From: Actinomycetes bacterium
Lineage (GTDB): Bacteria > Actinomycetota > Acidimicrobiia > Acidimicrobiales > Ilumatobacteraceae
Length of the DNA: 64,000 bases
Assembly (NCBI GenBank): GCA_029782355.1
Contig: JAKOUY010000036.1
Location: 2,193 to 66,192, forward strand
Reading direction: 5' to 3'
Positions 861 to 56,021 of this stretch are shown in pieces. The notes below the pieces were generated by a model. It was not told the DNA's origin. It saw nothing but the letters and a program-made list of their open reading frames with translations, and did no database searches. The position numbers and the translations under genes are program-made. Each line of letters starts with the position of its first letter. The first letter of the stretch is position 1.

Positions 861-1028
861 AAAAGCATGCTAACAAGTAGCATGATTCGACAGGCCGCCC
901 GTCGCGGTCCGGCCGCGATACGCTGCGTCACGCAACCCAGACGTGGTCCCGCCCGCCGCTCCTACGAGGCGGTCGTGGCCCGGGTGCTTTGGCAACAACC
1001 GGTCCGTTCCCGTCCCACGAGGTTCGTC

Positions 1029-5987: not shown

Positions 5988-6014
5988 GCTACCGTCACAC
6001 CCCGGGCCGGACCG

Positions 6015-6905: not shown

Positions 6906-6907
6906 GG

Positions 6908-7327: not shown

Positions 7328-7409
7328 CGCAAGTCTCCTTCGGTCCGCGAGGTGGGTTGCCACCCTATCGGCGGGCCCGGTGCACCACGGGACCCGACGA
7401 ACACCGCTG

Positions 7410-8042: not shown

Positions 8043-8068
8043 GTGGCCAGGCTACCGGTGCGGCCCGA

Positions 8069-11000
8069 TCAGGTGCGGGCGATCTCCCGCTCCTCGAAGG
8101 TCTCGATGATGTCTCCCGGCTTGAGATCCTGGAAGTCGGACAGGCCGATGCCGCACTCGAAGCCCTCGCGGACCTCGCGGACGTCGTCCTTGAACCGGCG
8201 CAGCGATTGGATCGAGCCCTTCCAGATGATCGTGCCGTCGCGCAGGAAGCGGACCTTCGAGCCACGGGTGATCTGCCCGCTGAGCACGTAGCACCCGGCG
8301 ATGGCGCCGATCCGCGGCACCCGGAAGATCTCGCGGACCTCGGCCTCGCCGGTGATCACCTCTTCGAACTCGGGGGCGAGCATGCCGACCATGGCCCGCT
8401 CGATGTCCTCGAGCAGCTTGTAGATGATCTCGTACAGGCGGACCTCGACGTGCTCGGCCTCGGCCATCTCCCGGGCCTTGCGGTCCGGGCGGACGTTGAA
8501 CCCGATCAGCGTGGCATTGGTGGTGGCCGCCAGGCTGATGTCGTTCTCGGTGATCGACCCCACACCACGGTGGACGAACGCCAGCTTGACGTCGTCGCGC
8601 TCCAGGCGGCGCAGCGACTCGGTGACGGCCTCCAGCGAGCCCTGCACGTCGGCCTTCAGCACCAGGTTCAAGGTGGCGACCTCGCCGGCCTGGATCTGGC
8701 TGAAGATGTCCTCCAGCTTGACGCCCCGCTGGACGCGGGCATCGCCACGCTGAGCCTTGAGCCGCTGGCGCTGCTCACGGGCCTCGCCCACGGTGCGGGC
8801 GGTCTTCTCGTCGGCGGCGGCACGGAACTCGTCGCCGGCGTTCGGCACGCTCTGCAACCCGAGCACCTGCACCGGGGTCGACGGGCCGGCCTCCTTGATC
8901 TGCTGACCCTTGTCGTCGATCATCGCCCGGACCCGGCCCCACGCCGCGCCGGCCACGATCGGGTCGCCGACCTTCAGCGTGCCCTTGTCGACCAGAATCG
9001 TGGCCACCGGGCCGCGGCCGACGTCGAGGTTGGCCTCCAGGACGATGCCCTTGGCCCGCCCGGTGGGATTGGCGGTCAGCTCCTCCAGCTCGGCGACGAC
9101 GACGAGTTGGGCGAGCAGATCATCGACCCCGAGGTTCTGCTGGGCGGACATCTCCACGGTGATCGTGTCGCCACCCCACGACTCGGGCACCAGCTCCTGC
9201 TCGGAGAGCTGGGAGAGCACCCGCTGGACGTCGGCGTTGTCCTTGTCGATCTTGTTGATCGCCACGACGATGGGCACCTCGGCGGCGCGGGCGTGGTTGA
9301 TCGCCTCCACCGTCTGGGGCATCACGCCGTCGTCGGCGGCCACCATCAGCACGACGATGTCGGTCACCTGCGCGCCACGGGCGCGCATCTTGGTGAACGC
9401 CGCGTGACCCGGGGTGTCGATGAAGGTCACCTCGCCCTCCGGCGTGGCCACCTTGTAGGCGCCGATGTGCTGGGTGATGCCGCCGGCCTCGCCGGCCACC
9501 ACGTTGGCGTTGCGGATCCGGTCGAGCAGGGTGGTCTTGCCGTGGTCGACGTGACCCATCACGGTCACCACCGGCGCCCGAGGCACCTGCGAAGCCTCGT
9601 CCTCGTCGTCGCTGTCGTCGAACAACGCCTGCAGCTCGAGCTCCTCCTGCTGGCCGGGTTCGACCAACAGCAGGTCGGCGCCGATCTCCAGGGCGAAGAG
9701 CTCCATCTGCTCGTCGGAGAGGGTCATCGTGGCGGTGACCATCTCGCCGTTCTGCATCAGGAAGCGGATCACGTCGGCCGGGGTGCGGTTCAGCTTGGGA
9801 GCGAACTCCTGGCTGGACACCCCCCGCTCGACCACGATGGTGCCCTCCGGCACCGGGGCCGAGGAGGCGGTGTACGACGAGTTGTAGTTGGGCTGCAACT
9901 CGTCGAAGTCACGGCGACGACGAGCGCGGCTCTTCTTGCGCGGTGCCCGGCGCTGGCCGCTCGGGCGACCGCCGCCACCGCCTGGCGGGCCACCAGGCCC
10001 GCCGGGACGCGGGCCGAAGCCGCCACCGGGACGCGGGCCACCGGGGCCACCACCCGGACGCGGTCCGAAGCCACCGGGCCGCGGGCCGCCAGGACCGCCG
10101 GGCCGGCCGCCGACACCGGCGGGGCGCGGTCCGCCCGGACGCGGCGCGCCCGGACCACCGGGGCGGGCCGTGTAGCTGCCGGGTCGGGACTGCGGGCGAG
10201 CCGAACCGGGCGGCGGCGGGATCGGGCGACCGGATGCCGACAGCGGGCGACCCACGCCGGGCGGCGGCGGGATCGGGCGACCGGATGCCGACATCGGCCG
10301 GGGTCCGGGGGTCGGAGGCATGCCGGGCGGTGGGGCCGCCGGACGTACAGCGGGGCCGCCGGCTGCTGCCGGCGGGCGCGGCGCGGCGGACGGCGGCGGC
10401 CCGGACGGGCGCGGCGCGGCCGGACGGGGCGGCTCGGCGCTCGGCCGGCTGCTGACGATGCGTCGCGGCTCGTCGTCGGTCGGTGCCGTCGACGCCGACC
10501 CGGCGGGGGCCGGCATGTCGGCCGGGCTCGCCGCGGCCGGGGCCGCGCTCCGGGCGGGCGCGGCGGGGGCTGCGGTTCGGGCGGGCGCGGCGGGCGGAGC
10601 CGGGGGCGTCTCGGCCACCGGGGCCGGTGACGGGGCGGAACTCGGCGCCGGCGCGGGCTCGGGAGACGGGCTCGGCGGGGCGGCCACCTCGGGGACCGCC
10701 GCCGGAGCCGGGGTCGGCGGGGCGGCGGGCGGGGTCTCGACGGGCACCGCCGGGGCGGGGGCCGGGGACGCCTCGGTGACGGCATGCTCGGCGACCGGCG
10801 CACCCGGCACCTCGGCGTCGGCCGGCGCGGCGTCAGCGGTGGCCTTCTTCGGGGCGGCCTTCTTCGCCGCAGCCTTCTTGACCGGCTTGGGCTCCTCGGG
10901 CTGCTCCGGGCGGGTCAGGCCGTCGCGCTCGGCGCGGCGACGCAGCCGGTCGGCCTGGGCCTCGATCAGTGTCGAGGAATGGCTCTTCACGCCGACGCCC

Positions 11001-11071
11001 ATGCGGTCGGCCAGCTCCATCATTTCGGTGTTCGTCATGCCGAGCTCTTTGGCCAGCTCGTGCACGCGCAT
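8069..11071 (-). CDS. infB: Translation initiation factor IF-2
   Basis: ORF 8069..11275. Start set at ATG 11071 ([20 protein letters not shown], the canonical IF-2 N-terminus) with AAGGAAAGG upstream. Long Pro/Ala/Gly-rich linker. GTPase motifs [21 protein letters not shown]. Confidence 0.95.
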
Positions 11072-11088
11072 GTTCTTCGCCAAGCCTG

Positions 11089-11424
11089 TCAGCCTTTCCT
11101 TGGCTCTGCTGGTCCGGGAACGGCGTCCCGGGCCGTTGATGATGTTCGCACGTCGGCGCCAACCGGTCCGAACGAGATGAGCAATCCGTCGAGCGCCCCG
11201 GCGTCGAGCGGACGCCGCCACGCCCGCTCGAAGGCCTTGCGCCGCCGGGCGGTGTCCAGGCACGCGGCCGAGCACAGCCAGGCCCCACGCCCGGGGGCGG
11301 TGCGGCTGACCTCGGCACCGGCGGGACCGACCACGCAGCGCACCAGGCGCGCCTGGACGTCGCGTCGCCGGCAGCCGATGCAGGTCCGCAGCGGTTGGCG
11401 GGGCTCACTCGCTCGGTGCGTCAC
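11089..11424 (-). CDS. ylxR: YlxR/RnpM family (DUF448) RNA-binding protein
   Basis: ORF 11089..11424. It has the RTCIGCR motif and sits between nusA and infB. The exact start is uncertain because it overlaps the nusA end. Confidence 0.75.
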   Translation of the reverse strand: MTHRASEPRQPLRTCIGCRRRDVQARLVRCVVGPAGAEVSRTAPGRGAWLCSAACLDTARRRKAFERAWRRPLDAGALDGLLISFGPVGADVRTSSTARDAVPGPAEPRKG

Positions 11425-12562
11425 CGGCCTCCGTCGTCGCCGGGGCCGCCACGGCGGTCTCGGCCTGTTGGTTCCACTCGGCCTGGGTCAGCACCGTGCC
11501 GTCGGCGGCGTGCCACTCCATCTCGCCGGTCTCGGCGTTGGCCACCCACTCGCCCTCTTCGTAGTCGGCGTCGTCCTCGTAGACCTCGACCGGCTGGGTC
11601 TCGCCGCGGATGTCGATGCGCACGCCGGTCAACCGGGCGGCCAGCCGGGCGTTCTGGCCCTCCTTGCCGATGGCCAGGCTGAGCTGGTGGTCGGGGACGA
11701 TCACGTCGGCCTGGCTCAGGTCATCGGCGATGATCACCTCTTTGACCTTGGCCGGCGACAGGGCCTTGGCGACGAAGTCGGCCAGGTCCTCGCTGAACGG
11801 GACGATGTCGATCTTCTCGCCGCGCAGCTCGTTGACGACCATCCGAACCCGGCCGCCACGTGCCCCGACGCACGCCCCGACCGGATCGACGTTGTGGTCG
11901 TTGCTCCAGACGGCGATCTTCGTGCGATGACCTGGCTCCCGGGCGCAGGCCTTGATCTCCACGATGCCGTCGGCGATCTCCGGCACCTCCAGCTCGAACA
12001 GCCGCTTGATCAGTCCCGGATGGGTCCTGCTGACCACGATCTGGGGGCCCTTGGCGGTCTTGCGGACCTCGACGATGTAGGCCTTGACCCGGTCGCCGGT
12101 GGACGGGCGCTCGTGGGGCACCTGCTCGGCCTTGGGCATCAGCGCCTCGACCCGACCGAGATCGATCAGGGTGTAGCGCTCGTCGCTCTGCTGGATGATG
12201 CCGGTGACGATGTCGCCCTCGCGGTTGGCGTACTCCTCGAACTTGCGGTCGCGCTCGGCCTCGCGGATCCGCTGGCTCATCACCTGGCGGAAGGTCTGGG
12301 CGGCGATCCGGCCCAGTTCGTCCTTCTTCGGCGTGTCGTCGCGCTCGTTGATCCAGTTGCCGTCCTCGTCGACGTCGTAGGCGATGAACGTGAACTCCAT
12401 GGTGTCCGGGTTGACCTCGACGACGACCTCCTCGGCCGCACCGGGACGTCGCTTGTAGGCGGTCGCCAGGGCGTCGACGAGCACGTGCAGCAGGGTGTCG
12501 ACGGAGATGTTCTTCTCCATCGCCAGCATGCGGATCGCTTCGGACATGTCAAGGCTGCTCAT
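11405..12562 (-). CDS. nusA: Transcription termination/antitermination factor NusA
   Basis: In ORF 11405..13126 from ATG 12562 ([25 protein letters not shown]). It has S1 and KH regions (GDIVTGIIQQ.., GACVGARGGRV, AIGKEGQNARLA). The ATGA overlaps the rimP stop. Confidence 0.95.
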   Translation of the reverse strand: MSSLDMSEAIRMLAMEKNISVDTLLHVLVDALATAYKRRPGAAEEVVVEVNPDTMEFTFIAYDVDEDGNWINERDDTPKKDELGRIAAQTFRQVMSQRIREAERDRKFEEYANREGDIVTGIIQQSDERYTLIDLGRVEALMPKAEQVPHERPSTGDRVKAYIVEVRKTAKGPQIVVSRTHPGLIKRLFELEVPEIADGIVEIKACAREPGHRTKIAVWSNDHNVDPVGACVGARGGRVRMVVNELRGEKIDIVPFSEDLADFVAKALSPAKVKEVIIADDLSQADVIVPDHQLSLAIGKEGQNARLAARLTGVRIDIRGETQPVEVYEDDADYEEGEWVANAETGEMEWHAADGTVLTQAEWNQQAETAVAAPATTEAGDAPSE

Positions 12563-13104
12563 CAGGCCCCTTTCACGGCGGCGGGCTTGGGCGCCTTCGG
12601 CCCCTTGCCCGGCTTGGGCGCCGGCCCCCAGGCGAACACGGTGCGGGCGCGGTCGATGTGGTCGTAGGACAGAGTGCGCTCCTCGCCGGCGGCAGCAGCC
12701 GGCTCGGTGAGGCGCACGGTGACGGTGGCGTCGTCGGCGGCCAGCAGGTCGCCCTGCAGGCGGCGCTGGTCGTTGACGACGTCGCGCAGGCGGATCGCCA
12801 CCGTCTTGCCGATCTCCCGGCGGTAGTGCGCCGGGGTCCGCAGCGCCCGTTCCAGTCCCGGGCTGGACACCTCCAGCGTGTAGCGCCCCGGGAGCGGGTC
12901 GGCCGCGTCGAGCTCCTTGCCGATCAGCCGGCTGGCCAGCGACAGGGTGTCCAGGCTGACCCCACCGGCGCTGCCCGCCGGCGTGTCCAGCGTGACCCGC
13001 AGGACGCCGCCGTGCATCTCCACGTCGTACAGGTCCAAGCGGAGGTCGGCGGCGATCGGGGCGACGAGGCGGGTGACCGTGCTGACGAGTGCGGATTCGG
13101 TCAT
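12562..13104 (-). CDS. rimP: Ribosome maturation factor RimP
   Basis: ORF 12562..13173. ATG 13104 ([14 protein letters not shown]..) is preceded by GGGAGGTG. The [12 protein letters not shown] motif is present. Confidence 0.85.
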
Positions 13105-13134
13105 GGCGGTCACCTCCCGGGGCCATTCATTGAA

Positions 13135-13166
13135 GAAGGCGTGGACCCTGACGAGTCCACGCCTTC
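13135..13166 (-). promoter_or_regulatory. Perfect 12-bp hairpin in the rimP-nusA-infB leader (possible attenuator/terminator)
   Basis: GAAGGCGTGGAC-N8-GTCCACGCCTTC. On the minus-strand transcript it is followed by UUCAAUGAAU and lies about 30 nt upstream of the rimP ATG. Confidence 0.4.
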
Positions 13167-13249
13167 GGTTCATGGAACTTCAAAGGACCCCGGGAGTGTA
13201 CCAGCGGGGACCACGGGTGACGACCGGCCCGGCCAGTAACCTGCCCTCC

Positions 13250-15016
13250 GTGCTGCGCCTCTCCACCCTGTTCGTGCGGACCCTGCGTGAGGATCCGGCC
13301 GATGCCGAGGTGGCCAGCCACCGCCTGCTGGTGCGTGCCGGGTACATCCGCCGGGCGGCACCGGGGGGGTTCAGCTTCCTGCCGCTCGGATGGTCGGTGT
13401 ACCGCAACGTCGAGCGGGTGGTCCGCGAGGAGATGGACCGCGCCGGCTTCCAGGAGGTCCACTTCCCGGCGCTGCTCCCCCGCGAGCCCTACGAGCAGAC
13501 CGGACGGTGGACGGAGTACGGCGACGGCATGTTCCGGCTCAAGGACCGTCGGGACAACGACCTGCTGTTGGCCCCGACCCACGAGGAGATGTTCACCCTG
13601 CTGGTCAAGGACCTGTACAGCAGCTACCGGGACCTGCCGCTGTCGATCTACCAGATCCAGACGAAGTACCGCGACGAGCCCCGGCCGCGCGCCGGGCTGC
13701 TGCGAACCCGCGAGTTCGTGATGAAGGACTCCTACAGCTTCGACGTCGACGACGCTGGCCTGCAGGCCAGCTACGACCGTCACCGGGTGGCTTACCAACG
13801 GACCTTCGAGCGTCTCGGCCTCCCCTACGTCATCGTCTCGGCCATGAGCGGGGCCATGGGCGGGTCGGCCAGCGAGGAGTTCCTCGCTCCCCTGCCCGCC
13901 GGGGAGGACACCTTCGTGCGCTGCCCGTCGTGTGGCTACGCGGCCAACACCGAGGCCGTGCAGGCCCGCCCGCCCGATCCCCGGCCGGTGGACGGGCTGC
14001 CCGAGGCGGTGGTCTCCGACACGCCGGGCACGCCCACGATCCAGACCCTCGTCGACCTGTTCAACGGGCGCGACGACCTCCGCCGCCCGGACCGCTCGTG
14101 GACCGCCGCCGACACCCTGAAGAACCTGGTGGTCACGCTCCGGTACCCGGACGGGCGCAACGAGCCGCTGGCCATCGGGGTACCCGGCGACCGCGAGGTC
14201 GATCTCAAGCGGGTCGAGGCCCAGGTCGCCCCGGCCGAGATCGAGCCGTTCAGCGACGCCGACTTCGCCGCCAACCCGGCGCTGGCCAAGGGATACATCG
14301 GTCCCGGCGCGCTGGGCCTCGAGCGCGCCAGCGCGATCCGGTACCTGCTCGACCCACGCATCGTCACCGGCACGGCCTGGATCACCGGCGCCGACCAACC
14401 CGGCCGGCACGTCCACGGCCTGGTCATGGGCCGGGACTTCACCGGCGACGGCGTCATCGAGGCCGCCGAGATCCGCGACGGCGACCCGTGCCCGACGTGC
14501 GGGTCGCCGATGGAGATCGCCCGGGGCATCGAGATCGGGCACATCTTCCAGCTCGGCCGGCGCTACGCCCAGGCCCTCGGCCTGACCGTGCTCGACCAGA
14601 ACGGCGCGACCCAGGTGGTCACCATGGGCTCCTACGGAATCGGCGTCACCCGGCTGGTGGCGGCCGTGGCCGAGCTGAACTGCGACGGGCGCGGCCTGGT
14701 CTGGCCCCACGAGGTGGCCCCCGCCGACGTGCACATCGTGGCCACCGGCAAGCCCGGCGATCCGCAACTCCCCGCCGCCGAGCAGCTCGCCGCCGACTGC
14801 GAGGCAGCCGGGCTACGCGTCCTGCTCGACGACCGGGTCGGGGTGTCCCCGGGCGTCAAGTTCAACGACGCCGAACTGCTCGGCATGCCGACCATCGTCG
14901 TCGTCGGCCGCGGCCTGGCCGACGGCGTGGTCGAGGTCAAGGACCGCCGCACCGGGGAACGCACCGACGTCCCCCTGGCCGACGCCGTCGCCCACCTCTC
15001 GGCCCCCCGCACCTGA
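13250..15016 (+). CDS. proS: Proline--tRNA ligase
   Basis: In ORF 12917..15016. GTG 13250 gives [35 protein letters not shown], the canonical bacterial ProRS N-terminus. ATG 13172 is an alternative start. Class II motifs and an insertion domain are present. Confidence 0.9.
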
Positions 15017-27681: not shown

Positions 27682-29352
<1,671 letters not shown>

Positions 29353-29445: not shown

Positions 29446-30774
29446 ATGTCGGGCATGCTGATCACGGCGCTGGCCGCCGCGGGAACGCTGGTGGCACCGC
29501 TGGGCGTGGCACAACACCAGCCACGGTCGTCCGCCGCCGGCTGCGCCACCGTCGTGAGGCCGGGAGCCGACGTCACGGCCGCGCTGGGCGACGCGCTGGT
29601 CGCCGCCAGCGCCGAGCCGGACCCCCGAGTCGTCGGGCCCGCCGGCGCTCCCCAGGGTCGGGTGTACCTGCCGGCGGGCGAGTACGGGCTGTCCCAGGTG
29701 ACGGTGCCCTCCAACGTCCGCCTGGAGATCGACCCGGGGGCGACCCTGCACCCGGTGCCGACCAGCCGCCCGACGCGGGGGCGCGATTGGGGCATGTTCG
29801 TGTTCGGGACGCCCGACCAGCCAACTCGCAACGTCACGGTGGTGGCCGGTGACGGCTGCGGCGGGCCGGGCACCCCGACCGCGGCGAACAAGCCGGCGTC
29901 GACCGACTTCCGCGGCAACCTCCCGGAGACGGGCATGCACAACATGGCCGTGCCACTGGCCGGATGGAACACCGAGGCGATGTGGGTCCTCGACGTCGAC
30001 CCGGGACACTGGCAGGTCGACGAGCAGGTCACCGGCTTCCTGCTGCACTGGGCCCTCGACGTCGAGATCGGGTCGGTGTTCTCCATCCAGAACCCGGCTC
30101 GCCAGCCCACCGGGATCGGGCCGGTCCCCGGCGTCACCAGCCGGACGACCGTCATGATGTTCGACCCGCACGAGGGGATGCCCGTGCCGGCCGACGAGGC
30201 CGACGCCCGGCTCCCGCAACGGATCCACGTCCACGACCACTACAACATCCTCTCGCCGTCCGGCCAGGGACCGAACCAAGTCCGCTCGTGCATCGACTGC
30301 CGCTTCGAGCGGATCTTCAGCCACGGAGGCGTGGCCCTGCGGATCGAGACCGACGGGATCCGCCGGGTGACCGACTGCACGGCCACCGGTCCCAATGGTC
30401 AGGGGTTCACCACCTACGCCATCGTCGACCGCCTCGTGGCCGAGGACATCGTCGGCGCTGACGGCAATCGCGCCGCGATGTTGACCCCGCACTGCCTGGA
30501 CAGCGGGGTGGTGACCGTCCGCCGGGTCACCGGCTACAGCGAGTTCCAGACCGCGGTCGCCGCAGCCCGCGACCGGGGCAGCCGCTCGGGCGGGTTCGCC
30601 GCCGGCAGCCGGATCGACGAGGTGCGCGCCTGTCCCGGCGACGCCGCCCAGGAGCCGCACCCCGATCGGGACAGCTACCTGCCGGCGACCTCGCAGGTCG
30701 CCGTCGTGGACGCCTCGCCCACGGTCGTGGTGACCCCGGCCCTGCCCTGGCCGGGGTGCGTCAACCCACCGTGA
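29446..30774 (+). CDS. Hypothetical secreted protein (signal peptide; possibly beta-helix-like)
   Basis: The last 442 aa of the artefactual ORF 26974..30774, from ATG 29446 (MSGMLITALAAAGTLVAPLGVAQ). I recognise no family. Confidence 0.5.
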   Translation: MSGMLITALAAAGTLVAPLGVAQHQPRSSAAGCATVVRPGADVTAALGDALVAASAEPDPRVVGPAGAPQGRVYLPAGEYGLSQVTVPSNVRLEIDPGATLHPVPTSRPTRGRDWGMFVFGTPDQPTRNVTVVAGDGCGGPGTPTAANKPASTDFRGNLPETGMHNMAVPLAGWNTEAMWVLDVDPGHWQVDEQVTGFLLHWALDVEIGSVFSIQNPARQPTGIGPVPGVTSRTTVMMFDPHEGMPVPADEADARLPQRIHVHDHYNILSPSGQGPNQVRSCIDCRFERIFSHGGVALRIETDGIRRVTDCTATGPNGQGFTTYAIVDRLVAEDIVGADGNRAAMLTPHCLDSGVVTVRRVTGYSEFQTAVAAARDRGSRSGGFAAGSRIDEVRACPGDAAQEPHPDRDSYLPATSQVAVVDASPTVVVTPALPWPGCVNPP

Positions 30775-33689: not shown

Positions 33690-34103
33690 TCACCCGGCCA
33701 GTTGCCAGGTGGCTCGCTCCTCGGCCCGGCGCAGCACCAGCACCGCGGCCCGTGGCGCGGCAGTGGGCAGCCGGAAGGTCAGCTGGCACGGTCGGACGGC
33801 GCGGGTGAAGGCCGCGCACCCGCTCGCCGCGGTCAGCAGGCGGCCGTCGCTCAGGAGGGCGAAGCCGTCCGAGCCGTTCGGATCGTCCACACCACCGACG
33901 CTGAGCTGGACGACCAGGTCCCCGGCGTCGACGGCCGCCTGGTGGACCACCACCGTGGCGTCACCCACGCGGACCTCCTCGCCGAGGCGGTGCGGCGGGC
34001 TGGCTGCCGGCTGGTTGGCCAGGCGGACCATCAGGGCCACCCCGGCCCCCAGCACCGCCAGCCCGCAGGCCACCGCCAGCAGCAGCAGGGTGCGGGTCTT
34101 CAT
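33690..34103 (-). CDS. Hypothetical small membrane-anchored protein
   Basis: ORF 33690..34103. It has an N-terminal TM/signal segment (MKTRTLLLLAVACGLAVLGAGVAL). I recognise no family. Confidence 0.45.
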   Translation of the reverse strand: MKTRTLLLLAVACGLAVLGAGVALMVRLANQPAASPPHRLGEEVRVGDATVVVHQAAVDAGDLVVQLSVGGVDDPNGSDGFALLSDGRLLTAASGCAAFTRAVRPCQLTFRLPTAAPRAAVLVLRRAEERATWQLAG

Positions 34104-34134
34104 CGGCGCCAGAGGCTACGGGTACCATGACCGG

Positions 34135-34731
34135 GTGCGCACCCGGACCGCCGCGGCACGTCTCGCCGCCTGCATCGCCGGGTCGGCGCTCGTGCTCGGG
34201 GCGTGCGGCGACGCGCCGGCTCGGACCGGCTCGGGCGCCACGGTGCCGCGATCGGCCACGGTGACCGGGGCGCCGGCGATGACCGCCCAGCCGGCCACGG
34301 TGCCGGCCGGGGCCACGCCCGGCACCGCCGTGGAACCGCTGCGCTTCTCGGCCACGCTCGTCGACGGCTCGACCCTCGATCTGGCCACGCTGTCGGGCAC
34401 GCCGGTGGTGCTGTGGTTCTGGGCGCCCACTTGAGGCGTGTGCAACCGGGAAGCCCCCTCGGTCGAGGCGGCCAGCGCTCGGTGGGCCGGTCGGGCCCGC
34501 TTCATCGGCGTCGCCTGGAACGGGGACCACGCCGCGTTCCAGGCCTTCGTCGACCAGCACCACCTGACCTTTCCGCAGATCGCCGACCCGGATGGGGACG
34601 TCTTCGCCCGCTTCGGGATCCCCGCCCAGCCGGCCATGGCGATCATCGACCGCCACGGCCTGGTGGCCCGCCAGCTCGGTCCGATCGAACCGGCCACCCT
34701 CGACCAGGCCCTGACCACGGCAGGAGGCTGA
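34135..34731 (+). CDS. TlpA/ResA-like thiol-disulfide oxidoreductase lipoprotein with in-frame TGA at 34432..34434 (UGVC in place of CxxC): candidate selenoprotein
   Basis: The tail of ORF 33589..34434 from GTG 34135 (VRTRTAAARLAACIAGSALVLGACGD, a lipobox) and ORF 34438..34731 are in the same frame, separated only by TGA-GGC. The joined sequence reads ..PVVLWFWAPT-U-GVCNREAPSVEA..F.GVAW..FPQIADPDG..F....PA.AIID, i.e. the WxxWCxxC..E.P redoxin signature with Sec at the first Cys. Confidence 0.6.
34453..34472 (+). promoter_or_regulatory. SECIS-like hairpin downstream of the TGA at 34432..34434
   Basis: GCCCCCUC-GGUC-GAGGCGGC: 4 bp, one C.C mismatch, then 3 bp, with a GGUC apical tetraloop. The stem starts 18 nt after the UGA. 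Confidence 0.4.
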
Positions 34732-34732
34732 C

Positions 34733-35629
34733 GTGCGCGTCCTCATCAGTGGTGCCACCGGCCTGATCGGCACCGCGCTCGTCGAGCGGCTGCGCGCCGG
34801 TGGCCATCAGCCGGTCCGCCTGGTGCGGCGCGACCCCACCGGGGACGACGTCGTCTGGCGCCCGTCGGAGCGGGCCCTGCCGGCCGGGGCGCTCGAGGGC
34901 GCCGACGCCGTCGTCAACCTCGCCGGCGCGGGGATCGGCGAGCATCGCTGGACCGATGCCTACCGAGCGGAGATCCTGGCCAGCCGGATCGACGCCACCG
35001 CCACGCTGGCCGCGGCCATCGCCGCGGCCGGGTCCGATGCCCCCGGCGTGTTCCTGTCCGGCAGCGCAGTGGGGTTCTACGGCGACCGCGGCGACGAGGT
35101 GCTCACCGAACGCTCTGCCGGCGGCGGCGGGTTCCTGGCCGACGTCTGCCGCCAGTGGGAGGCCGCCGCCCAGCCGGCCGTCGCCGCCGGATGCCGGGTG
35201 GTCAACCTGCGCACCGGCATCGTCCTGGCCGGCCACGGCGGGGCGCTGGCCAAGCAACTCCCGCTGTTCCGCCTCGGGCTGGGTGGACGGATCGGCTCGG
35301 GCCGGCAGTGGTGGAGCTGGATCGCCCTCGAGGACCACGTCTCGGCCATGGTCCACCTGCTCACCGCCGACCTCGACGGCCCGGTCAACCTCACCGCCCC
35401 GAACCCGGCGACCAACACCGAGTTCACCCGGACCCTCGGCCGGGTGCTGCACCGCCCGACGCTGCTCGCCGTTCCCGGCTTCGCCCCCAAAGTGCTGCTG
35501 GGTGCCGATCTCGCCGAGGCCCTGCTGCTGGAGGGTCAGCGGGTCCAGCCGGAGGTCCTGCGCTCGGCGGGGTTCACCTGGCGGCACCCGGAGCTGGCAG
35601 GGGCGCTGGCCGCCGCCCTCGGACGATGA
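34733..35629 (+). CDS. TIGR01777 (YfcH/SDR39U1-like) epimerase family protein with a DUF1731 C-terminus
   Basis: ORF 34733..35629. VLISGATGLIGTAL, RTGIVL, the G.Q..SWI..D-type pattern, and the C-terminal GF.F..P.L motif are present. Confidence 0.8.
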   Translation: MRVLISGATGLIGTALVERLRAGGHQPVRLVRRDPTGDDVVWRPSERALPAGALEGADAVVNLAGAGIGEHRWTDAYRAEILASRIDATATLAAAIAAAGSDAPGVFLSGSAVGFYGDRGDEVLTERSAGGGGFLADVCRQWEAAAQPAVAAGCRVVNLRTGIVLAGHGGALAKQLPLFRLGLGGRIGSGRQWWSWIALEDHVSAMVHLLTADLDGPVNLTAPNPATNTEFTRTLGRVLHRPTLLAVPGFAPKVLLGADLAEALLLEGQRVQPEVLRSAGFTWRHPELAGALAAALGR

Positions 35630-40992: not shown

Positions 40993-41026
40993 GAATGGGC
41001 GGGACGCGGCGGGTGGGGACGGTGCC

Positions 41027-41032
41027 TACGGT
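41027..41032 (+). promoter_or_regulatory. -10-like TACGGT hexamer 7 nt upstream of the purL ATG (predicts a leaderless mRNA)
   Basis: It matches TANNNT. The spacing to the ATG is compatible with a transcription start at or next to the start codon, and there is no Shine-Dalgarno sequence between them. Confidence 0.35.
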
Positions 41033-41039
41033 GCCGGGC

Positions 41040-43790
41040 ATGACCGAACGGCTGGTGGTGGCGGCACGCGGGCAGGACCCGCGCTCGGCGGCGGTGACCA
41101 GGGCGGCGGCCACGCTCGGGTACCCGCACCTGTCGATCGAGGTGGCCGATCTGGTCTTGACCGACCACCCGGTCGGTCGAGCCCTGGGCGACTTGCTGAT
41201 CGAGCCGCTGCTGCAGGCCGCTGACGACGCACCGGGGTCCACGGGCGTGCACACCGTCGACGTCGTCCCCCGCCACGGCGTCACCGACCCGGCCGCCACC
41301 GAGTTGCACCGAGCCGCCGAGTGGACCGGTGAGGCCGTGCGCGCCACCGTGGGGCGGCGGTACCGGGTCCGCGGCGCTCGCTCGGCGACCGAGCTCGACC
41401 GGGTGGTGCGCCGGCTGCTGGCCAACCCGGTGGTCGAGCGGTGGACGGTCGACGAGCCGATCGACCTCGGCGAGCCGCCCGAGCCCGCCGAGCCGATCGT
41501 CGAGACCGTCGCCGTGGCCGGCCTCGACGACCGGGCCCTCGGTGCGCTAAACGCCGAGCGCGGCCTGTCGCTGGACCTCGACCAACTGCGCGCCATCGCC
41601 CGACACTTCGCCGCCCTCGACCGCCCGCCCACCGACGCCGAGATCGAGATGATCGCCCAGACGTGGAGCGAGCACTGCGCCCACACCACCTTCCGGGCCG
41701 ACATCACCCTGCCCGACGGGACCACCGTCGAGCCGCTGCTCCACCAGCTGCGGTCGAGCACCGAGACGCTCGCCCGCCCGTGGGTCGTCAACGCCTTCGC
41801 CGGCAACGCCGGCATCGTCGCCTTCACCGAGGACCGGACCATCGCCCTCAAGGCCGAGACCCACAACCACCCCAGCGCCGTCGAGCCGTTCGGCGGGGCC
41901 AACACCGGCGTCGGTGGGGTGATCCGCGACGTGATGGGCGCGGCCCACCGCCCGATCGCGATCACCGACGTGCTGTGCTTCGGCTCGCCGGACATGGCGA
42001 GCACCCCCGACGGGGTGCTCCACCCGACCCGGATCATCGACGGGGTCGTGGCTGGCGTGGCCGACTACGGCAACAAGATCGGCCTGCCGACGGTGGCCGG
42101 CGCGGTGCTGTACGACCCGGCCTACACCGCCAACCCACTGGTCTACGCCGGCTGCATCGGGGTCGCCTCGACGCTCGACCCGCCGCTCACCGGGCCGCAC
42201 CCCGGCGATCGGGTGGTGGTGATCGGCGGGCGCACCGGCCGCGACGGCATCCGCGGCGCCACCTTCAGCAGCCGGACCATGGACGGCGCCACCGGCGAGG
42301 TCGCCGGTGCCAGCGTGCAGATCGGGGATCCGATCGTCGAGAAGCTGCTCATCGACGTGCTGGCCGAGTCCACCGGGCTGTTCACGGCGATCACCGACTG
42401 CGGCGCCGGCGGCCTGTCGTCGGCGGTCGGCGAGATGGCCGATCCGCTCGGTGCCGAGGTCGATCTGGCCGGCGCCCCGCTCAAGTACCCCGGGCTGCAG
42501 CCCTGGGAGATCTGGTTGAGCGAGGCCCAGGAGCGAATGGTGCTGGCAGTCGACCCGGCCCGCCTGGCCGAGATGACCACGGTGTGCCGCCGCCACGGCG
42601 TCGAGCTGACCGACCTCGGCCACTTCACCGGGGACGGCCGGCTGGTGGTCCGCCACGGCTCGATGACCGTGGTCGACCTCGACGTCGGCTTCCTCCACGA
42701 CGGCCGCCCGCCGCGCTCGCTCCGAGCCGAACTGCCCGCGCCGCAGCGCGACGTCGACCAGCTGCCGCCGGCCAACCTGGACGTCGCCGCCACCCTGCTG
42801 GCCCTGCTCGCCCATCCGAACATCGCCTGCAAGGCTGACGTCGTGCGCCGCTACGACCACGAGATCCGCGGCGCCACCCTCGGTCGGCCGCTGATCGGTG
42901 TCGAGGGGGACGGCCACGCCGACGGCGTGGTCCTGGCCGAACCCACCGAGCACCACGGCATCGCCGTCGGCATCGGGGTCAATCCGTGGTACGGCATGCT
43001 GGATGCCGAGCGGATGGCCCACGCCGCGGTCGACGAGGCAGTCCGCAACGTGATCGCGGCGGGCGCCGACCCGGACAAGATCGCCCTGCTCGACAACTTC
43101 TCGTGGGGCGACCCGCGCCGGCCCTCGACCCTCGGCCAGTTGGTCGCTGCCGTGCGTGGCTGCGTCGACGCAGCCGCGGCCCACGACGCCCCGTTCGTCA
43201 GCGGCAAGGACAGCCTGAACAACGAGTACCTCGGCCGCGACGGTCAGCGCCACGCCGTGCCGCCCACGCTGGTGATCACCGCCGTCGCCCACGTGCCCGA
43301 CCTGACCCGGCTTCCCGCCGCCGAGCTCCGCCACCCCGGGCACTACCTGGTGCTCATCGGCGCCCCGGAGACCTGGTTCGGCGGCAGCCACCTGCACCTC
43401 GTGCGTGGCACCAGCGGTGGCGTCGTCCCGCCCCCCGACGCCGGCGCCCCGGCCCGCTACCGGGTGGTCCACCACCTGATCGGTGGTGGGCACCTGGGCG
43501 GCCTGCACGACATCAGCGAGGGTGGCGTGGCCGTCGCCGTGGCCGAGATGGCCATCGCCGGCGGTCTCGGTGCCCACCTCGAACCCACCGATCCGGCCAC
43601 GCTGTTCGGCGAGGCCAACGGTCGTTTCGTTGCCGAGGTCGACCCTCACGACCTCGACCTGATCCGCCGGGCACTTCCCGGCCAGGTGACCGTGCTCGGC
43701 GTGGTCAGCGCCGACCCGTCGCTGCGCATCGGCGAGGCGGTGCGGATCGGGCCCGACGACCTGCGCCGAGCCTGGCGCGGCCGCTACTGA
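41040..43790 (+). CDS. purL: Phosphoribosylformylglycinamidine synthase subunit PurL with an N-terminal tandem PurS-like extension
   Basis: In ORF 39696..43790 from ATG 41040, 916 aa. Residues ~75-165 (VDVVPRHGVTDPAATEL..VGRRYRV..ELDRVVRRLLANPVVERWTV) match PurS. Residues 1-70 are a weaker PurS-like repeat. The remainder is canonical small PurL (WSEHCAH, ETHNHPSAVEPFGGANTGVGGVIRD). Confidence 0.9.
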   Translation: MTERLVVAARGQDPRSAAVTRAAATLGYPHLSIEVADLVLTDHPVGRALGDLLIEPLLQAADDAPGSTGVHTVDVVPRHGVTDPAATELHRAAEWTGEAVRATVGRRYRVRGARSATELDRVVRRLLANPVVERWTVDEPIDLGEPPEPAEPIVETVAVAGLDDRALGALNAERGLSLDLDQLRAIARHFAALDRPPTDAEIEMIAQTWSEHCAHTTFRADITLPDGTTVEPLLHQLRSSTETLARPWVVNAFAGNAGIVAFTEDRTIALKAETHNHPSAVEPFGGANTGVGGVIRDVMGAAHRPIAITDVLCFGSPDMASTPDGVLHPTRIIDGVVAGVADYGNKIGLPTVAGAVLYDPAYTANPLVYAGCIGVASTLDPPLTGPHPGDRVVVIGGRTGRDGIRGATFSSRTMDGATGEVAGASVQIGDPIVEKLLIDVLAESTGLFTAITDCGAGGLSSAVGEMADPLGAEVDLAGAPLKYPGLQPWEIWLSEAQERMVLAVDPARLAEMTTVCRRHGVELTDLGHFTGDGRLVVRHGSMTVVDLDVGFLHDGRPPRSLRAELPAPQRDVDQLPPANLDVAATLLALLAHPNIACKADVVRRYDHEIRGATLGRPLIGVEGDGHADGVVLAEPTEHHGIAVGIGVNPWYGMLDAERMAHAAVDEAVRNVIAAGADPDKIALLDNFSWGDPRRPSTLGQLVAAVRGCVDAAAAHDAPFVSGKDSLNNEYLGRDGQRHAVPPTLVITAVAHVPDLTRLPAAELRHPGHYLVLIGAPETWFGGSHLHLVRGTSGGVVPPPDAGAPARYRVVHHLIGGGHLGGLHDISEGGVAVAVAEMAIAGGLGAHLEPTDPATLFGEANGRFVAEVDPHDLDLIRRALPGQVTVLGVVSADPSLRIGEAVRIGPDDLRRAWRGRY

Positions 43791-46955: not shown

Positions 46956-48356
46956 GTGTGCGGGGTGCTCGGGCTCTCCACGCCACACGGTGACGGGGTG
47001 GCCAGCATGGCCTTCTTCGGCCTGTACGCCCTGCAGCACCGCGGCCAGGAAGCCGCCGGGATCGCCGTCAGCGACGGGCAGCGGGCCCGGCTGCACAAGG
47101 ACGCCGGGCTGGTGGCCAACGTCTTCAACCCCGACCGCCTGGCGCCGCTCACCGGCTACCACGCCATCGGCCACACCCGCTACAGCACCACCGGTGGCAG
47201 CGGAGCGCGCAACGCCCAGCCGTTCCTGGTCGAGACCATGCACGGCCCGATGGCCCTGGCGCACAACGGCAACCTGGTCAACGCCCCGGCGCTGCGGGCC
47301 GAGCTGCTGTCGCGCGGCTTCGGGCTGACCGCCAGCAGCGACACCGAGGTGATGACGCTGATGCTCACCTCGGCCGGCGGGCGCGACTGGGAGGAACGCC
47401 TCGAGCGCACCCTGCCGGCCTGGAAGGGGGCCTACAGCCTGGTGATCCTGACCCACGACCGGGTCCTCGCCGCCCGTGACCCATGGGGCTTCCGGCCGCT
47501 GTCGATCGGCCGCTTGCCCGATGGCGGCTGGGCGGCGGCGTCGGAGACCTGCGCCCTGCTGACCCTCGGGTGCAGCGACGTGGCCGAGGTCGAGCCGGGC
47601 GAGATCGTCACGCTGCAGGGCAGCGAGCTGCGCCGCCGGCGGCTGTTCGCCAGTGGGCGCCCGGCGCACTGCAGCTTCGAGTTCGTCTACTTCAGCCGGC
47701 CGGACAGCACCTGGGCGGGCAGCAACGTCCACCATGCCCGCCAGCGCCTCGGCGAGCGGTTGGCCGCGGAGAGCCCGGTGGATGCCGACGTCGTCGTGCC
47801 GGTGCCGGACAGCAGCATCCCGGCAGCCATCGGCTACAGCCACGTCAGCGGGGTGCCGTTCAACGACGGGCTGATCAAGAATCGCTACATCGGGCGGACC
47901 TTCATCGAGCCCGCCCAGGCCCAGCGCCAGCGCGGGGTGGCGCTGAAGTTCAACGCCCTTGCGGAGAACCTGGCCGGCAAGCGGGTGGTGATGATCGACG
48001 ATTCGCTGGTCCGCGGCACGACGGCCGGACCGCTGGTCAAGCTGGTTCGCGACGCCGGGGCCACCGAGGTCCACCTGCGGATCACCTGCCCGCCCATCAC
48101 CCACGCCTGCCACTTCGGCGTCGACATGGGCCACGACGGCGACCTGATGGCCGCCCGCCACGACGTCGAGGAGATCCGCCGGCACATCGGCTGCGACTCG
48201 CTGGCGTTCCTCAGCCTGGCGGGCATGCTGGCCGCCATCGCCGGCCCGGAGCCGGCCGGCGGTTCGGGCCTGTGCACCGCCTGCTTCACGGGCGACTACC
48301 CCGTCCCGGTGGAGGAGGCCCCGGTGAAGCTGGCCTTCGAGGGAGCGCTGCGCTGA
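46956..48356 (+). CDS. purF: Amidophosphoribosyltransferase
   Basis: In ORF 46695..48356 from GTG 46956, giving (M)CGVLGL with the N-terminal catalytic Cys. LQHRGQE, GHTRYST, and the PRTase loop VVMIDDSLVRGTT are present. Confidence 0.9.
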   Translation: MCGVLGLSTPHGDGVASMAFFGLYALQHRGQEAAGIAVSDGQRARLHKDAGLVANVFNPDRLAPLTGYHAIGHTRYSTTGGSGARNAQPFLVETMHGPMALAHNGNLVNAPALRAELLSRGFGLTASSDTEVMTLMLTSAGGRDWEERLERTLPAWKGAYSLVILTHDRVLAARDPWGFRPLSIGRLPDGGWAAASETCALLTLGCSDVAEVEPGEIVTLQGSELRRRRLFASGRPAHCSFEFVYFSRPDSTWAGSNVHHARQRLGERLAAESPVDADVVVPVPDSSIPAAIGYSHVSGVPFNDGLIKNRYIGRTFIEPAQAQRQRGVALKFNALAENLAGKRVVMIDDSLVRGTTAGPLVKLVRDAGATEVHLRITCPPITHACHFGVDMGHDGDLMAARHDVEEIRRHIGCDSLAFLSLAGMLAAIAGPEPAGGSGLCTACFTGDYPVPVEEAPVKLAFEGALR

Positions 48357-50544
48357 TGCACGTCGTCGTGCTCGGTTCGGGCGGGCGGGAGCACGCCATC
48401 GCCTGGCACGTCGCCCGCCACGGGCACCGGGTTGAGGTGTGCGACTCGATCCACTCGGCAGTCGGCGCCCACCCGGACCTGGTCATCGTCGGGCCCGAAT
48501 CACTGCTGGCCGCGGGGGCCGCCGACCGCTGCACGGCAGCCGGCATCGCCTGCTTCGGCCCCACCGCAGCGCTGGCCCGGTTGGAGACCTCCAAGGCCGA
48601 CGGCCGTGACCTGGCGGCCCGCCTGGGCATCCCCATCCCCCGCTACCGCACGCACCCCGACGCGCCCAGCGCGCTCGACGCGTGGCGCGCCGACGGATGC
48701 CCCCCGGTGGTGGTCAAGCAGGACGGCCTGGCGGCCGGCAAAGGCGTGGCCGTCCCGGACGGTCCGGCCGAGACCGAAGCCGCCATCGTCGCCCTCGGCG
48801 CTGCCGGGCCGCTGGTGGTCGAGCAGCGCATGAGCGGCCCGGAGCTGACCCTCCTGGCCGTCTCCGACGGGCGTCGCGCCGTGGCGCTGCCGCTGGTGCA
48901 GGACCACAAGCGGATCGGCGAGGGGGACACCGGACCGAACACGGGTGGCATGGGCGCGGTGGCCCCCGTCGACCTCGGCCTCGACCCGGCGGCCCTGACG
49001 GCCACGTTCGTCCAGCCGGTCATCGATCACCTCGCCGCCGCCGGGACGCCCTACATCGGGGTGCTGTACGCCGGGCTGATGCTCACGGCGGGCGGGCCTC
49101 GACTGGTGGAGTACAACTGCCGCTTCGGGGATCCCGAGGCCCAGGCCGTCCTGGCGCTGCTGGATGCCGACCTGGCGGCTCTGGCGATGGCCTGCGTCGA
49201 GGGTCGGCTCGACCCCGCCATGGTGACCACCCGAGCCGGGGCAGCCTGCACGGTGGTGGCCGCCGCCCCCGGCTACCCGGACTGCCCGCAGCTCGGCGGC
49301 ACGGTGCGCCTCGACGGCCGCCCGCTGCCCGACGGCAGCGTCGAGCTGGCCGAGGGCGTGGTGCTGCACCCGGCGGGAGTGTGCCGCGGCACGGTCACCG
49401 GCGGGCGGGTGCTGTCGGTCACGGCCACTGCAGCCGACCTCGGTCGGGCCCGACAGCAGGCGTACGACGCGCTGGCGCGCATCGAGCTCGACGGCGTCCA
49501 GGTGCGCGGCGACATCGGCTGGCGGGCCCGGGCGGCGGGCATCGCCACCTACTCGGCGACCGGGGTGGACATCGACGAAGGCAATCGGGCCGTCCGCTCC
49601 CTGGCCGCGGCGGTCGAGGCGACCCACGGCCCTGCCGTGCTGCGCGGCGTCGGCAGCTTCGGCGGGGCCTTCTCCGCCGCGGCGCTGGTCGCCATGGACG
49701 ATCCGGTGCTGGTCGGCTCCACCGACGGCGTCGGCACGAAGGTCGAGCTAGCCGCCCGGGCCGGGCGCTACGCCGGGGTCGGCCAGGACATCGTCAACCA
49801 CTGCATCGACGACGTCCTCGTGCAGGGGGCTCGCCCGCTGTTCTTCCTCGACTACATCGCCGCCGCCCGGATCCGCGCCGAGCAGGTCGCCGAGGTCGTC
49901 GGCGGCATGGCCGCGGCCTGCGCGGCCGGTGGGTGTGCGCTGCTGGGCGGGGAGACCGCCGAGATGCCGGGCGTCTACCACGACGGCCACTTCGACATCG
50001 CCGGCACGCTGGTGGGTGCGGTGGAGCGGGCCGACCTGCTGCCCCGCCCGACGGTGGCCGCCGGCGACGTCCTGGTCGGCCTGGCCTCCAGCGGAGCGCA
50101 CACCAACGGGTACTCGCTGCTGCGCAACCTGTTCGCCTGGCTGCCCCTCGACGCCCAGCCGGCCCCGCTCGATCGCCCGCTGGTCGACGCCCTGCTCGAG
50201 CCGCACCGTTCGTACCTCGACGTCCTCGGCCCGCTGCTCGACCACCCGGCGCTGAAGGCCCTGGCCCACATCACGGGCGGCGGGCTGCCGGAGAACCTGC
50301 CTCGGGTCCTGCCCGAGGGGGTCCACGCCGAGATCCAGCTCGGCTCGTGGCCGCTGCCACCGCTGTTCGAGCTGGTCACCCAGGTCGCCACGACCATGCC
50401 GGTTGAGGAGCTGTACCGGACCCTCAACATGGGCATCGGCATGGTCGTGGTCACCGATCGGCCGGAGGAGATCCGAGCCGCCATCGCCGAGCCGAGCTGG
50501 ATCATCGGGCGCCTGGTGCCCGGCCGGCGCGGGGTCACCCTGCG

Positions 50545-50548
<4 letters not shown>
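48356..50548 (+). CDS. purD-purM: Fused phosphoribosylamine--glycine ligase (PurD) / AIR synthase (PurM)
   Basis: In ORF 47483..50548 from ATG 48356, 730 aa. The PurD part has VVVLGSGGREHA, DHKRIGEGDTGPNTGGMG, EYNCRFGDPE and GDIGWRA. It continues directly into the PurM part: YSATGVDIDEGNRAV, GTDGVGTKV, LGGETAEMPG, AHITGGG. Confidence 0.9.
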
Positions 50549-55208: not shown

Positions 55209-56021
55209 ATGGCGGGAGGTTCGATGCTGATCTACGAGCCGTGCGGATCGATCGCCGGGGAGGATGGTGCGCCACGGCGCACGCCGGGCATCCGCCCGTC
55301 ACTGGTCGGGCGGCGCCTCGGCGTGCTCGACAATGGCAAGCCCAATGCCGGCGTGGTGCTCGGTGCCATCGCCCAGACCCTGGTCGGTCGGCACGGCGCC
55401 GTGGCCGGACTGGTCACCGGCAAGGGCCCAGGTGCCAATGCGGCCACCGCCGCCCGTCCGGAGGTCCTCGCCCGGCTGGGCGACGAGGTCGACGTCACGC
55501 TGGTGGGCTCGGCCGATTGAGGGAGCTGCACGTCGTGGAGTGTCCACGACGCCGTCGAGCTGGAGGGCCGCGGAGTCACCGCGCTCGTCGTGACCACCCC
55601 ACCGTTCCTCTCGCTGACCCGCCGGGTCGCCGCCGAGCTGGGGCGTGCGGACCTGGCCGTGCTCGTCGTCCCCCACCCGTTGGGCGGCACCGATCCGGAC
55701 GAGGTGCGCCGGTGGGGCGCCGAGTCGGCCGAGATCGCCGCCCGAGCGCTCGCCGGGACACCCGTGCCCGGATCGGACCAGGCCGAGCCGGCGCGCTTGG
55801 CCGATCTGCAGCAGACGCTGCGCCAGGACGGCGCCGAACTGCGCCTCGAGCGCATCGAGGGTGGCGTCGCCCACCTCACCCTGGAACTCGCCGACGCCCG
55901 CTGCGCCGAGTGCGTCATGCCCGCCGAGTTCATCGAGCGGTTGGCCGGCGCGGCCCTGGCGGCCGAGATCGACGGGCTGGGCGGCGTGGTCGTCCACGAT
56001 CCGCGACGGGAGGACCGATGA
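55209..56021 (+). CDS. UGSC-motif protein with a NifU-like C-terminal domain and in-frame TGA at 55518..55520: candidate selenoprotein
   Basis: ORF 55209..55520 and ORF 55590..56021 are in the same frame with no stop between them other than the TGA. The joined sequence reads ..VDVTLVGSAD-U-GSCTSWSVHDAVELEGRGVTALVVTTPPF.. The C-terminus (LRLERIEGGVAHLTLELADARCAECVMP) is NifU/Nfu-like. ATG 55224, preceded by GGGAGG, is the more likely start. Confidence 0.6.
55531..55551 (+). promoter_or_regulatory. SECIS-like hairpin downstream of the TGA at 55518..55520
   Basis: CGUCGUGGA-GUG-UCCACGACG: a perfect 9-bp stem (or 8 bp with an AGUGU loop). It starts 10 nt after the UGA. Confidence 0.5.

Follow-up and report, generated by a model that had tools for sequence, protein, structure and literature searches.

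The closest described relatives of the protein considered here are two exported thioredoxin-fold proteins of Mycobacterium tuberculosis, DsbF (Rv1677; structure 3IOS) and DsbE, or MPT53 (Rv2878c; structure 1LU4), which have been studied as secreted oxidoreductases and antigens; DsbF is a lipoprotein. Thioredoxin-fold redoxins carrying selenocysteine (Sec, U) in a UxxC motif have been catalogued since 2004–2005, the conversion of Cys to Sec in redox families has been described as the common route, and the Actinobacteria rank among the phyla listed as rich in selenoprotein families. No paper linking DsbE, DsbF or MPT53 with selenocysteine was found in the searched literature. Here we describe a redoxin gene from a 64,000-nucleotide (nt) stretch of actinobacterial DNA (hereafter the window; 73% G+C, 52 called genes), which is interrupted by a single in-frame TGA at position 34432. 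A comparative analysis makes it highly probable that this UGA is a Sec codon and that the gene encodes a Sec form of the actinobacterial DsbE/DsbF (MPT53) redoxin.

The frame from 34135 to 34731 on the plus strand translates as VRTRTAAARLAACIAGSALVLGAC...TPVVLWFWAPT*GVCNREAPSVEAA...TTAGG*, and its sole internal stop, the TGA at 34432–34434, replaces the first Cys of a CxxC motif in the active-site sequence WFWAPT-U-GVC. Its features, including a candidate selenocysteine insertion sequence (SECIS) with its minimum free energy (MFE), are as follows; A1 denotes the family alignment.

34135..34731, plus strand: redoxin gene of 198 codons with a GTG start and one internal UGA; its translation is a DsbE/DsbF-type thioredoxin-fold protein, putatively a lipoprotein
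34135..34206, plus strand: putative lipoprotein signal peptide, read from the sequence, with the lipobox L-G-A-C and Cys24 encoded at 34204–34206
34432..34434, plus strand: UGA, probable Sec codon (U100), in the place of the N-terminal nucleophilic Cys of CxxC by alignment with TGA and Cys homologues
34441..34443, plus strand: Cys103, the resolving Cys of U-G-V-C (column C40, invariant in A1)
34453..34472, plus strand: SECIS-like hairpin GCC(C)CCUC/GAGG(C)GGC with a GGUC apical loop at 34461–34464 (MFE −10.9 kcal/mol for 34451–34474)
34445..34483, plus strand: possible extended stem-loop, its lower helix pairing 34445–34450 with 34478–34483 (MFE fold of the window sequence only)
34627..34632, plus strand: Gln165-Pro166, a thioredoxin-fold loop facing the active site with a presumed cis-Pro (Q102 and P103 invariant in A1; QP also in DsbF and DsbE)
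34729..34731, plus strand: true stop of the redoxin gene, also TGA, from the sequence

The GTG start was placed from the position of the signal peptide, in which a basic n-region, a hydrophobic core and L-G-A-C can be recognised by eye, with a tether rich in Ala, Pro and Thr behind it; the equivalent lipoboxes of the homologues are LSAC, LSGC and FGC. A first-pass annotation of this stretch had already placed the interrupted frame between these coordinates with the TGA at the first Cys of CxxC, and both the translation and a Pfam match running across the TGA confirm that arrangement. Once the stop is replaced by Cys, the joined protein scores above the gathering thresholds of two Pfam families, AhpC-TSA (PF00578; 63.5 bits against a cut-off of 26, E=2e-17) and Redoxin (PF08534; 59.5 bits against a cut-off of 26.6), and the match is unbroken over residues 71–179, spanning the TGA at residue 100. 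When the family profile A1 was compared with the PDB, DsbF (3IOS) was matched over the whole domain at E=1.5e-44 (profile positions 2–136) and DsbE/MPT53 (1LU4), again over the whole domain, at E=9e-40, with ResA, TlpA and CcmG at about 1e-17 or weaker. The original description of a TlpA/ResA-like lipoprotein thus stands in so far as the protein is a redoxin with a lipobox read from the sequence, the nearest proteins being DsbF and DsbE/MPT53 rather than ResA or CcmG proper. Its active site combines U100-x-x-C103 with E106, a Glu three residues past the second Cys, and Q165-P166, in accord with the invariant columns C37, C40, E43, Q102 and P103 of A1.

As judged from these matches and the lipobox, the protein is a thioredoxin-fold oxidoreductase of the DsbE/DsbF (MPT53) family, predicted to be exported and membrane-anchored, with a predicted U100-G-V-C103 centre. 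It shares with the two M. tuberculosis proteins the whole thioredoxin-fold domain, the motif xLWFWxPxCxxCxxEAP, the Q-P loop, a signal peptide for export (putative in the window protein) and an actinobacterial origin, and differs from them in that UGA, and presumably Sec, replaces the first active-site Cys. With the UxxC redoxin selenoproteins catalogued in 2005 it has in common the thioredoxin fold, Sec in the first position of UxxC, a Sec/Cys-pairing prediction and, for the window protein, a passing score against PF00578; those proteins came from Deltaproteobacteria and marine metagenomes, and the comparison with them is by description only. No NCBIfam model claims the joined protein. It scored 37 bits against the 300-bit cut-off of NF041054, the 'ResA-like WAxxUGC motif-containing protein', and 54.6 bits against the 170-bit cut-off of the ResA subfamily model NF002854, and membership of both was rejected. 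NF041054 nevertheless describes a similar ResA-like redoxin selenoprotein, with W-A-x-x-U-G where the window protein has W-A-P-T-U-G; it differs in having a model length of 354 residues and the sequence U-G-C, against 198 residues and U-G-V-C here.

Comparative evidence on the TGA comes from its column in homologous proteins. A first protein search with the joined sequence gave only four relatives, and these, together with the best 120 from a profile search of 5.8 billion proteins, make up a set of 124 retrieved proteins (designated P0001 and so on). All 120 of the best-scoring profile-search relatives have Cys at the TGA column, as do 122 of the 124 overall, the exceptions being P0001, in which the residue is read as Trp, and P0004, which lacks the motif. 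At the level of DNA, a scan of 185,579 species-representative genomes gave 13 related loci and a metagenome scan 19 more (designated L001 and so on). Counting the window, 12 distinct loci have TGA at this very column, the 11 others coming from independent assemblies, from two lineages and from DNA of 46–74% G+C (aligned TGA loci: L001, L002, L015, L016, L014, L004, L009, L025, L007, L008, L027, L011 and L013); the remaining fetched loci have TGC or TGT. The motif is WFWAPG-*-GTC/TTC in L001, L002, L015 and L016, WFWAPG-*-RAC in L014, which lies on a contig of 46% G+C, and APF-*-PSC/PTC in L004 (Pseudonocardia sp. N23), L009 and L025. Some 97 codons 3′ of the window TGA are open and conserved up to the usual C-terminus of the family, and the frame is intact to that point in 10 of the 11 other distinct TGA loci. 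Three of these loci (L001, L002 and L016) are syntenic orthologues, with the gene order lipB/lipA – sucB – lpd – small divergent gene – redoxin – epimerase-like – argJ; relative to the window their Lpd proteins are 75–80% identical and their redoxins about 55%, and the TGA and open downstream frame have been kept. In the column comparison proposed in the first-pass annotation, 11 other distinct loci proved to have TGA and 122 of the 124 retrieved proteins Cys, and the differing disruptions among orthologues that it named as the sign of a pseudogene were seen nowhere but in the frameshifted L013.

That locus, on a 1.5-kb contig of a metagenome-assembled genome, is a TGA form (139–374) in which a 1-nt deletion shifts the frame and removes the GGUC hairpin. 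Two Cys forms, L032 (from 2268 onward) and L033 (from 1208 onward), have a TAG 16 codons past the Cys codon where their relatives have Tyr or Phe. All three are decayed members of the family.

The residue before the nucleophile also sets the two forms apart. Trp occupies this position (WCxxC) in 121 of the 122 Cys-form proteins retrieved, whereas all intact TGA forms, in both lineages, have Gly, Thr or Phe before the Sec codon; the window protein differs from its Cys-form relatives in having Thr99 (ACT, 34429–34431) in place of Trp, and the only W-TGA locus is the frameshifted L013. The loss of Trp may have a structural cause or one in the decoding context.

The TGA loci fall into group A (the window, L001/L002/L015, L016 and L014) and group B (the Pseudonocardia-like loci), and both have a GGUC-capped hairpin downstream of the UGA. 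The hairpin that the first-pass annotation had reported at 34453–34472 is indeed present: it begins 18 nt past the TGA, with its GGUC loop beginning 26 nt past it, a spacing found throughout group A. All four distinct group A sequences, the one of 46% G+C included, share the 12-nt core CCUCGGUCGAGG unchanged, and the C·C mismatch in the window stem is a G-C pair in L016. The lower helix of the extended stem-loop is not conserved in register in L001, L016 and L014, which makes that extension tentative. Group B has two adjacent hairpins, one with the loop GAGG (GAAG in L007) 15 nt past the UGA and a second with a stem of 6–7 base pairs (bp) and a GGUC cap, its loop 35 nt past the UGA. Among the few group B sequences pairing holds in 96.7% of cells, and two of the pairs (C-G/U-A and G-C/A-U) are compensatory. 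When a stem of at least 4 bp with a GGUC loop 16–37 nt after the TGA was taken as the criterion, this arrangement was seen in 10 of the 11 distinct TGA forms, at a distance of 26 or 35 nt (the frameshifted L013 is the exception), versus none of 12 distinct Cys forms, and it followed only 5 of the 1,213 TGA triplets in the window (0.4%). For residues invariant in group A, 5 of the 7 codons that fall among the first 17 past the UGA are identical, as opposed to 4 of 30 in the rest of the gene (Fisher p=0.005), an excess that argues for constraint on the RNA itself.

Published constraints for bacterial SECIS elements (bSECIS) specify an apical loop of 3–9 nt with a G in its first two positions, an upper stem of 4–16 bp, a distance of 16–37 nt from the UGA and an MFE of −7.5 kcal/mol or lower (PMC13188914, Fig. 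2). The window hairpin, with its GGUC loop, 4+3 bp stem, 26-nt spacing and −10.9 kcal/mol, falls within all of them. Like the SECIS of E. coli fdhF it is a coding-sequence hairpin just 3′ of the UGA, capped by the apical loop GGUC; it differs in that the fdhF loop lies 18 nt past the UGA, as against 26 nt in the window and 35 nt in the Pseudonocardia-like lineage, and in that the window stem is unrelated in sequence and has no match in Rfam. The fdhF loop was given correctly in the first-pass annotation: TGA-N18-GGTC, flanked by TTGCA and TGCAC, occurs under fdhF at 100% identity in more than 5,400 E. coli genomes.

A number of observations nonetheless weigh against the assignment of Sec. The contrast between 10 of 11 TGA forms and 0 of 12 Cys forms overstates the independence of the observations, because only two lineages underlie the association. 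Group A, with its four distinct sequences, displays neither covariation nor double changes, only conservation, and the excess of synonymous-site identity in group B is not significant (p=0.26). The 75-nt region is no more stable than its shuffles (z=+1.37), and Rfam gave no SECIS or other relevant match, either across the whole window at gathering scores or in 34100–34800 at E≤10. Finally, neither the 64-kb window nor some 330 kb of related loci yielded selA, selB, selD or tRNA-Sec. A simplified generic bSECIS model fits 19% of the TGA triplets in the window and is therefore not discriminating in DNA of 73% G+C; since the generic model is so permissive here and the fold is no better than shuffles, the hairpin alone is weak evidence, and it is the comparative data that carry the case.

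The search for the decoding machinery took several forms. A Pfam check covering 40 of the 52 called window open reading frames (ORFs), and leaving out those in 1–11404, the ORF at 63204–63911, sucB and lpd, detected no SelA, SelB or SelD. Searches of the window and all loci by tblastn with E. coli SelD and SelB (approximate query sequences) matched only translation initiation factor IF-2, the gene for which, infB (8069–10255), was recognised solely by motif and by this tblastn match. No tRNA-Sec was reported by ARAGORN in 33 related loci. In the window its 90-nt 'tRNA-Arg(gcg)' at 30640–30729 on the minus strand was considered as a tRNA-Sec candidate and rejected, Rfam having no tRNA there at any threshold; the call, made in intergenic DNA rich in G+C, is probably spurious. 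When TGA codons flanked on both sides by high G+C at third codon positions (GC3) were sought, all that came up were ordinary junctions between genes in the same frame.

There is, however, a second TGA-interrupted gene of selenoprotein type 21 kb from the redoxin gene.

55224..56021, plus strand: UGSC family gene with a TGA at 55518–55520 in D-U-G-S-C (Pfam, NCBIfam)
55531..55551, plus strand: hairpin of this gene by folding, 8 bp with the loop AGUGU, which lies 18 nt past the UGA, the spacing seen in fdhF

Its C-terminal ORF matches PF24696 only from profile position 94, and across the TGA the joined protein aligns with the NCBIfam model NF041046, 'UGSC family (seleno)protein' (E=4.9e-30), its 104.5 bits falling below the cut-off of 125. 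This family (NF041046/PF24696) is unrelated to the redoxin in fold and motif and is relevant only to the use of Sec by the genome. Two independent selenoprotein-type genes within 64 kb make the Sec trait likely, and on these sequences the source genome probably decodes Sec. Sec decoding is on record for related Actinomycetota: in Pseudonocardiaceae SelA, SelB and SelD are expressed, and formate oxidation is selenium-dependent and employs a Se-dependent formate dehydrogenase (PMC7176365); about 40% of mycobacteria possess the Sec machinery (PMC13449736).

How else might the TGA be explained? The first-pass annotation had left the choice between read-through and a very recent pseudogene, and only the former has survived, on account of the recurrent TGA, the hairpin and the open frame. 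A pseudogene would have arisen by a TGC-to-TGA nonsense mutation in a Cys-type DsbE/DsbF gene, leaving a useless fragment of 99 residues as the only product. Such a change requires a single substitution, the 1-nt deletion that cost L013 its frame and GGUC hairpin shows that decay does happen in this redoxin family, and the Sec machinery of the source genome is only probable. Yet 11 other distinct loci, from two lineages and widely differing in G+C, have the same TGA, 10 of them free of further stops and frameshifts; the half of the protein that follows the TGA is conserved to the normal C-terminus of the family; no Cys-form member was found in the window's own clade, group A; and both the hairpin and the synonymous-site constraint are located exactly 3′ of the TGA. 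A pseudogene is thus very improbable. The recurrence of the TGA in independent assemblies also excludes an assembly error, a possibility raised at the outset. Sequencing error is disposed of by the same recurrence, and for genome-wide reassignment of UGA (genetic code table 4 or 25) the one point in favour is that a public gene caller rendered the orthologous TGA of the 46% G+C contig as Trp. That call, P0001, the one relative from the window's own clade in the protein database, covers 239–880 of L014 (contig GROS21-1 scaffold_169285 in ENA) and translates two TGAs as Trp in the manner of table 4, of which the first lies upstream of the real signal peptide and the second is the Sec codon; a reading that has to traverse a TGA preceding the real signal peptide is a caller artefact, and its Trp hides a selenoprotein. 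In the window, moreover, TGA terminates 39 of the 52 called genes, the redoxin gene among them, so UGA is not globally reassigned and any decoding at 34432 must be local. Error and reassignment together are of negligible probability.

A subtler possibility is read-through without selenium, in which a near-cognate tRNA for Trp or Cys, or a tRNASec charged with Cys or Ser, would yield a W/C/S-x-x-C protein, perhaps depending on conditions. UGA is the leakiest of the stop codons, in other systems Cys is misincorporated via the Sec pathway when selenium is limited, and here too it counts that the Sec machinery of the genome is only probable. Near-cognate leakage typically amounts to a few percent, though, and would leave the conserved GGUC hairpin, a known type of SelB-binding loop, unexplained; a dedicated selenoprotein-family gene, UGSC, lies in the same window; and Trp or Ser at the position of the nucleophile would be inactive. 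Selenium-free read-through is accordingly very unlikely.

The Sec reading suggests the following course of events. On the comparative pattern and the bSECIS model, SelB–GTP–Sec-tRNASec bound to the GGUC hairpin (34453–34472) would deliver Sec at UGA 34432, pre-empting release factor 2. The resulting 198-residue prolipoprotein is predicted to be exported, to receive its acyl group on Cys24 and to be anchored at the outer surface of the membrane. There U100-G-V-C103 may alternate between the selenol/thiol and selenenylsulfide states, exchanging with the disulfides or thiols of substrates, and from the chemistry of the thioredoxin fold and of Sec the selenol would be expected to be a stronger nucleophile and a better leaving group than the Cys of ordinary members.

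The distribution of the TGA forms bears on how Sec entered the family. In neighbour-joining analysis none of 300 bootstraps joined groups A and B in one clade; group B falls within the Cys forms, beside P0012, a Cys form with the same F-C and EGPG features, and relative to Cys forms its GGUC stem is completed by an E-to-A replacement. The failure of A and B to form one clade, coupled with their differing hairpin offsets, suggests at least two separate recruitments of Sec; the tree was built from a short alignment, and such evolutionary inferences are suggestions. A fuller proposal can be put forward only tentatively, its chances falling somewhat short of even: that Sec was recruited at least twice at the same catalytic position in actinobacterial DsbE/DsbF proteins, with a GGUC-capped hairpin of the SelB type arising each time from coding sequence (at offsets of 26 and 35 nt, by the E-to-A change in the Pseudonocardia-like clade) and the Trp being lost each time (WCxxC to G/T/F-UxxC), and that the window clade is an all-Sec, uncatalogued lineage of exported lipoproteins.

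The gene very probably encodes an unannotated selenoprotein of an already catalogued kind, unsurprising to a specialist, and the current understanding of bacterial selenoproteins is not overturned. It does call for correction of the annotation, given that gene callers split or truncate the gene and that one public record has the UGA as Trp; as a consequence of such miscalling, protein databases lack, for one set of Actinomycetota, the half of a predicted exported redox enzyme that bears the active site. The Sec reading extends the use of Sec to the DsbE/DsbF (MPT53) family. The natural Sec/Cys pairs also offer a means of asking what selenium buys an extracytoplasmic thiol-disulfide exchanger, and two hairpin placements with repeated loss of the Trp before the nucleophile would form a compact case of SECIS evolution within coding sequence.

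A gene for a polytopic membrane protein lies directly downstream of the redoxin gene in group B and in most Cys loci.

L004, 10623–11321: CcdA-like gene
L007, 10270–11265: CcdA-like gene
L011, 8988–9914: CcdA-like gene

It has the same position in L003, L005, L006, L010 and L017–L026. The protein contains the motifs AAFNPCGFALLPAYL and SLSCTIAPFL, with NPC and SCT...P elements, and a weak DsbD_TM match below cut-off (E=6.5e-5); from these features it is probably a CcdA-like electron transporter. That it so often adjoins the redoxin, in group B as in most Cys relatives, suggests that proteins of this family are normally held in the reduced state by a CcdA-type supply of reducing equivalents from the cytoplasm. 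Only a 44-residue remnant persists in L008 and L027, and the window clade differs from many relatives in that no such gene adjoins the redoxin in the window, L001, L002 or L016. In L004 the Sec-redoxin/CcdA-like pair is followed by a DUF3179 gene (11338–12525) and an FMN reductase-like gene (12540–13250). DUF3179 is listed as a predicted selenoprotein family (PMC13188914); the L004 ORF is uninterrupted.

On its other side the window redoxin gene adjoins a small gene:

33690..34115, minus strand: small divergent gene encoding an N-terminal hydrophobic segment and two Cys (SGCAAFTRAVRPC)

This gene is kept at the syntenic position in L001, L002, L015 and L016, with 42–45% identity, and has no match in Pfam or NCBIfam; that its product is a partner or substrate of the redoxin is pure speculation. 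Downstream, the GTG start of an epimerase-like gene (Epimerase and DUF1731 domains) lies at 34733, separated by 1 nt from the redoxin TGA stop, and in this junction (34723–34735) a GGAGG is found within the last codons of the redoxin gene, for which reasons the two genes are probably translationally coupled in the window. In L001, L002 and L016 further genes intervene between them.

The mycobacterial Lpd-DlaT-AhpD-AhpC relay offers an analogy for a link between the redoxin and the adjacent lpd-sucB-lipBA genes. This link was set aside, since the redoxin bears a putative export signal and those enzymes are cytoplasmic. Within that cluster, a 556-codon ORF at 27682–29352 on the minus strand joins a LipB-type octanoyl/lipoyl transferase domain (LplA-B_cat, residues 12–210) to the radical-SAM domain of a lipoyl synthase (LIAS_N and Radical_SAM, 266–477), apparently as a lipB-lipA fusion; the counterparts in L002 (583 residues) and L016 (566 residues) align with it in a single piece. 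Two further ORFs, as delimited by a GC3-based caller, are possible fusions in the purine operon: the one at 40995–43790 on the plus strand has PurS, FGAM-synthase linker and AIRS domains (purS-purL), and the one at 48272–50548, also on the plus strand, has GARS (PurD) and AIRS (PurM) domains (purD-purM).

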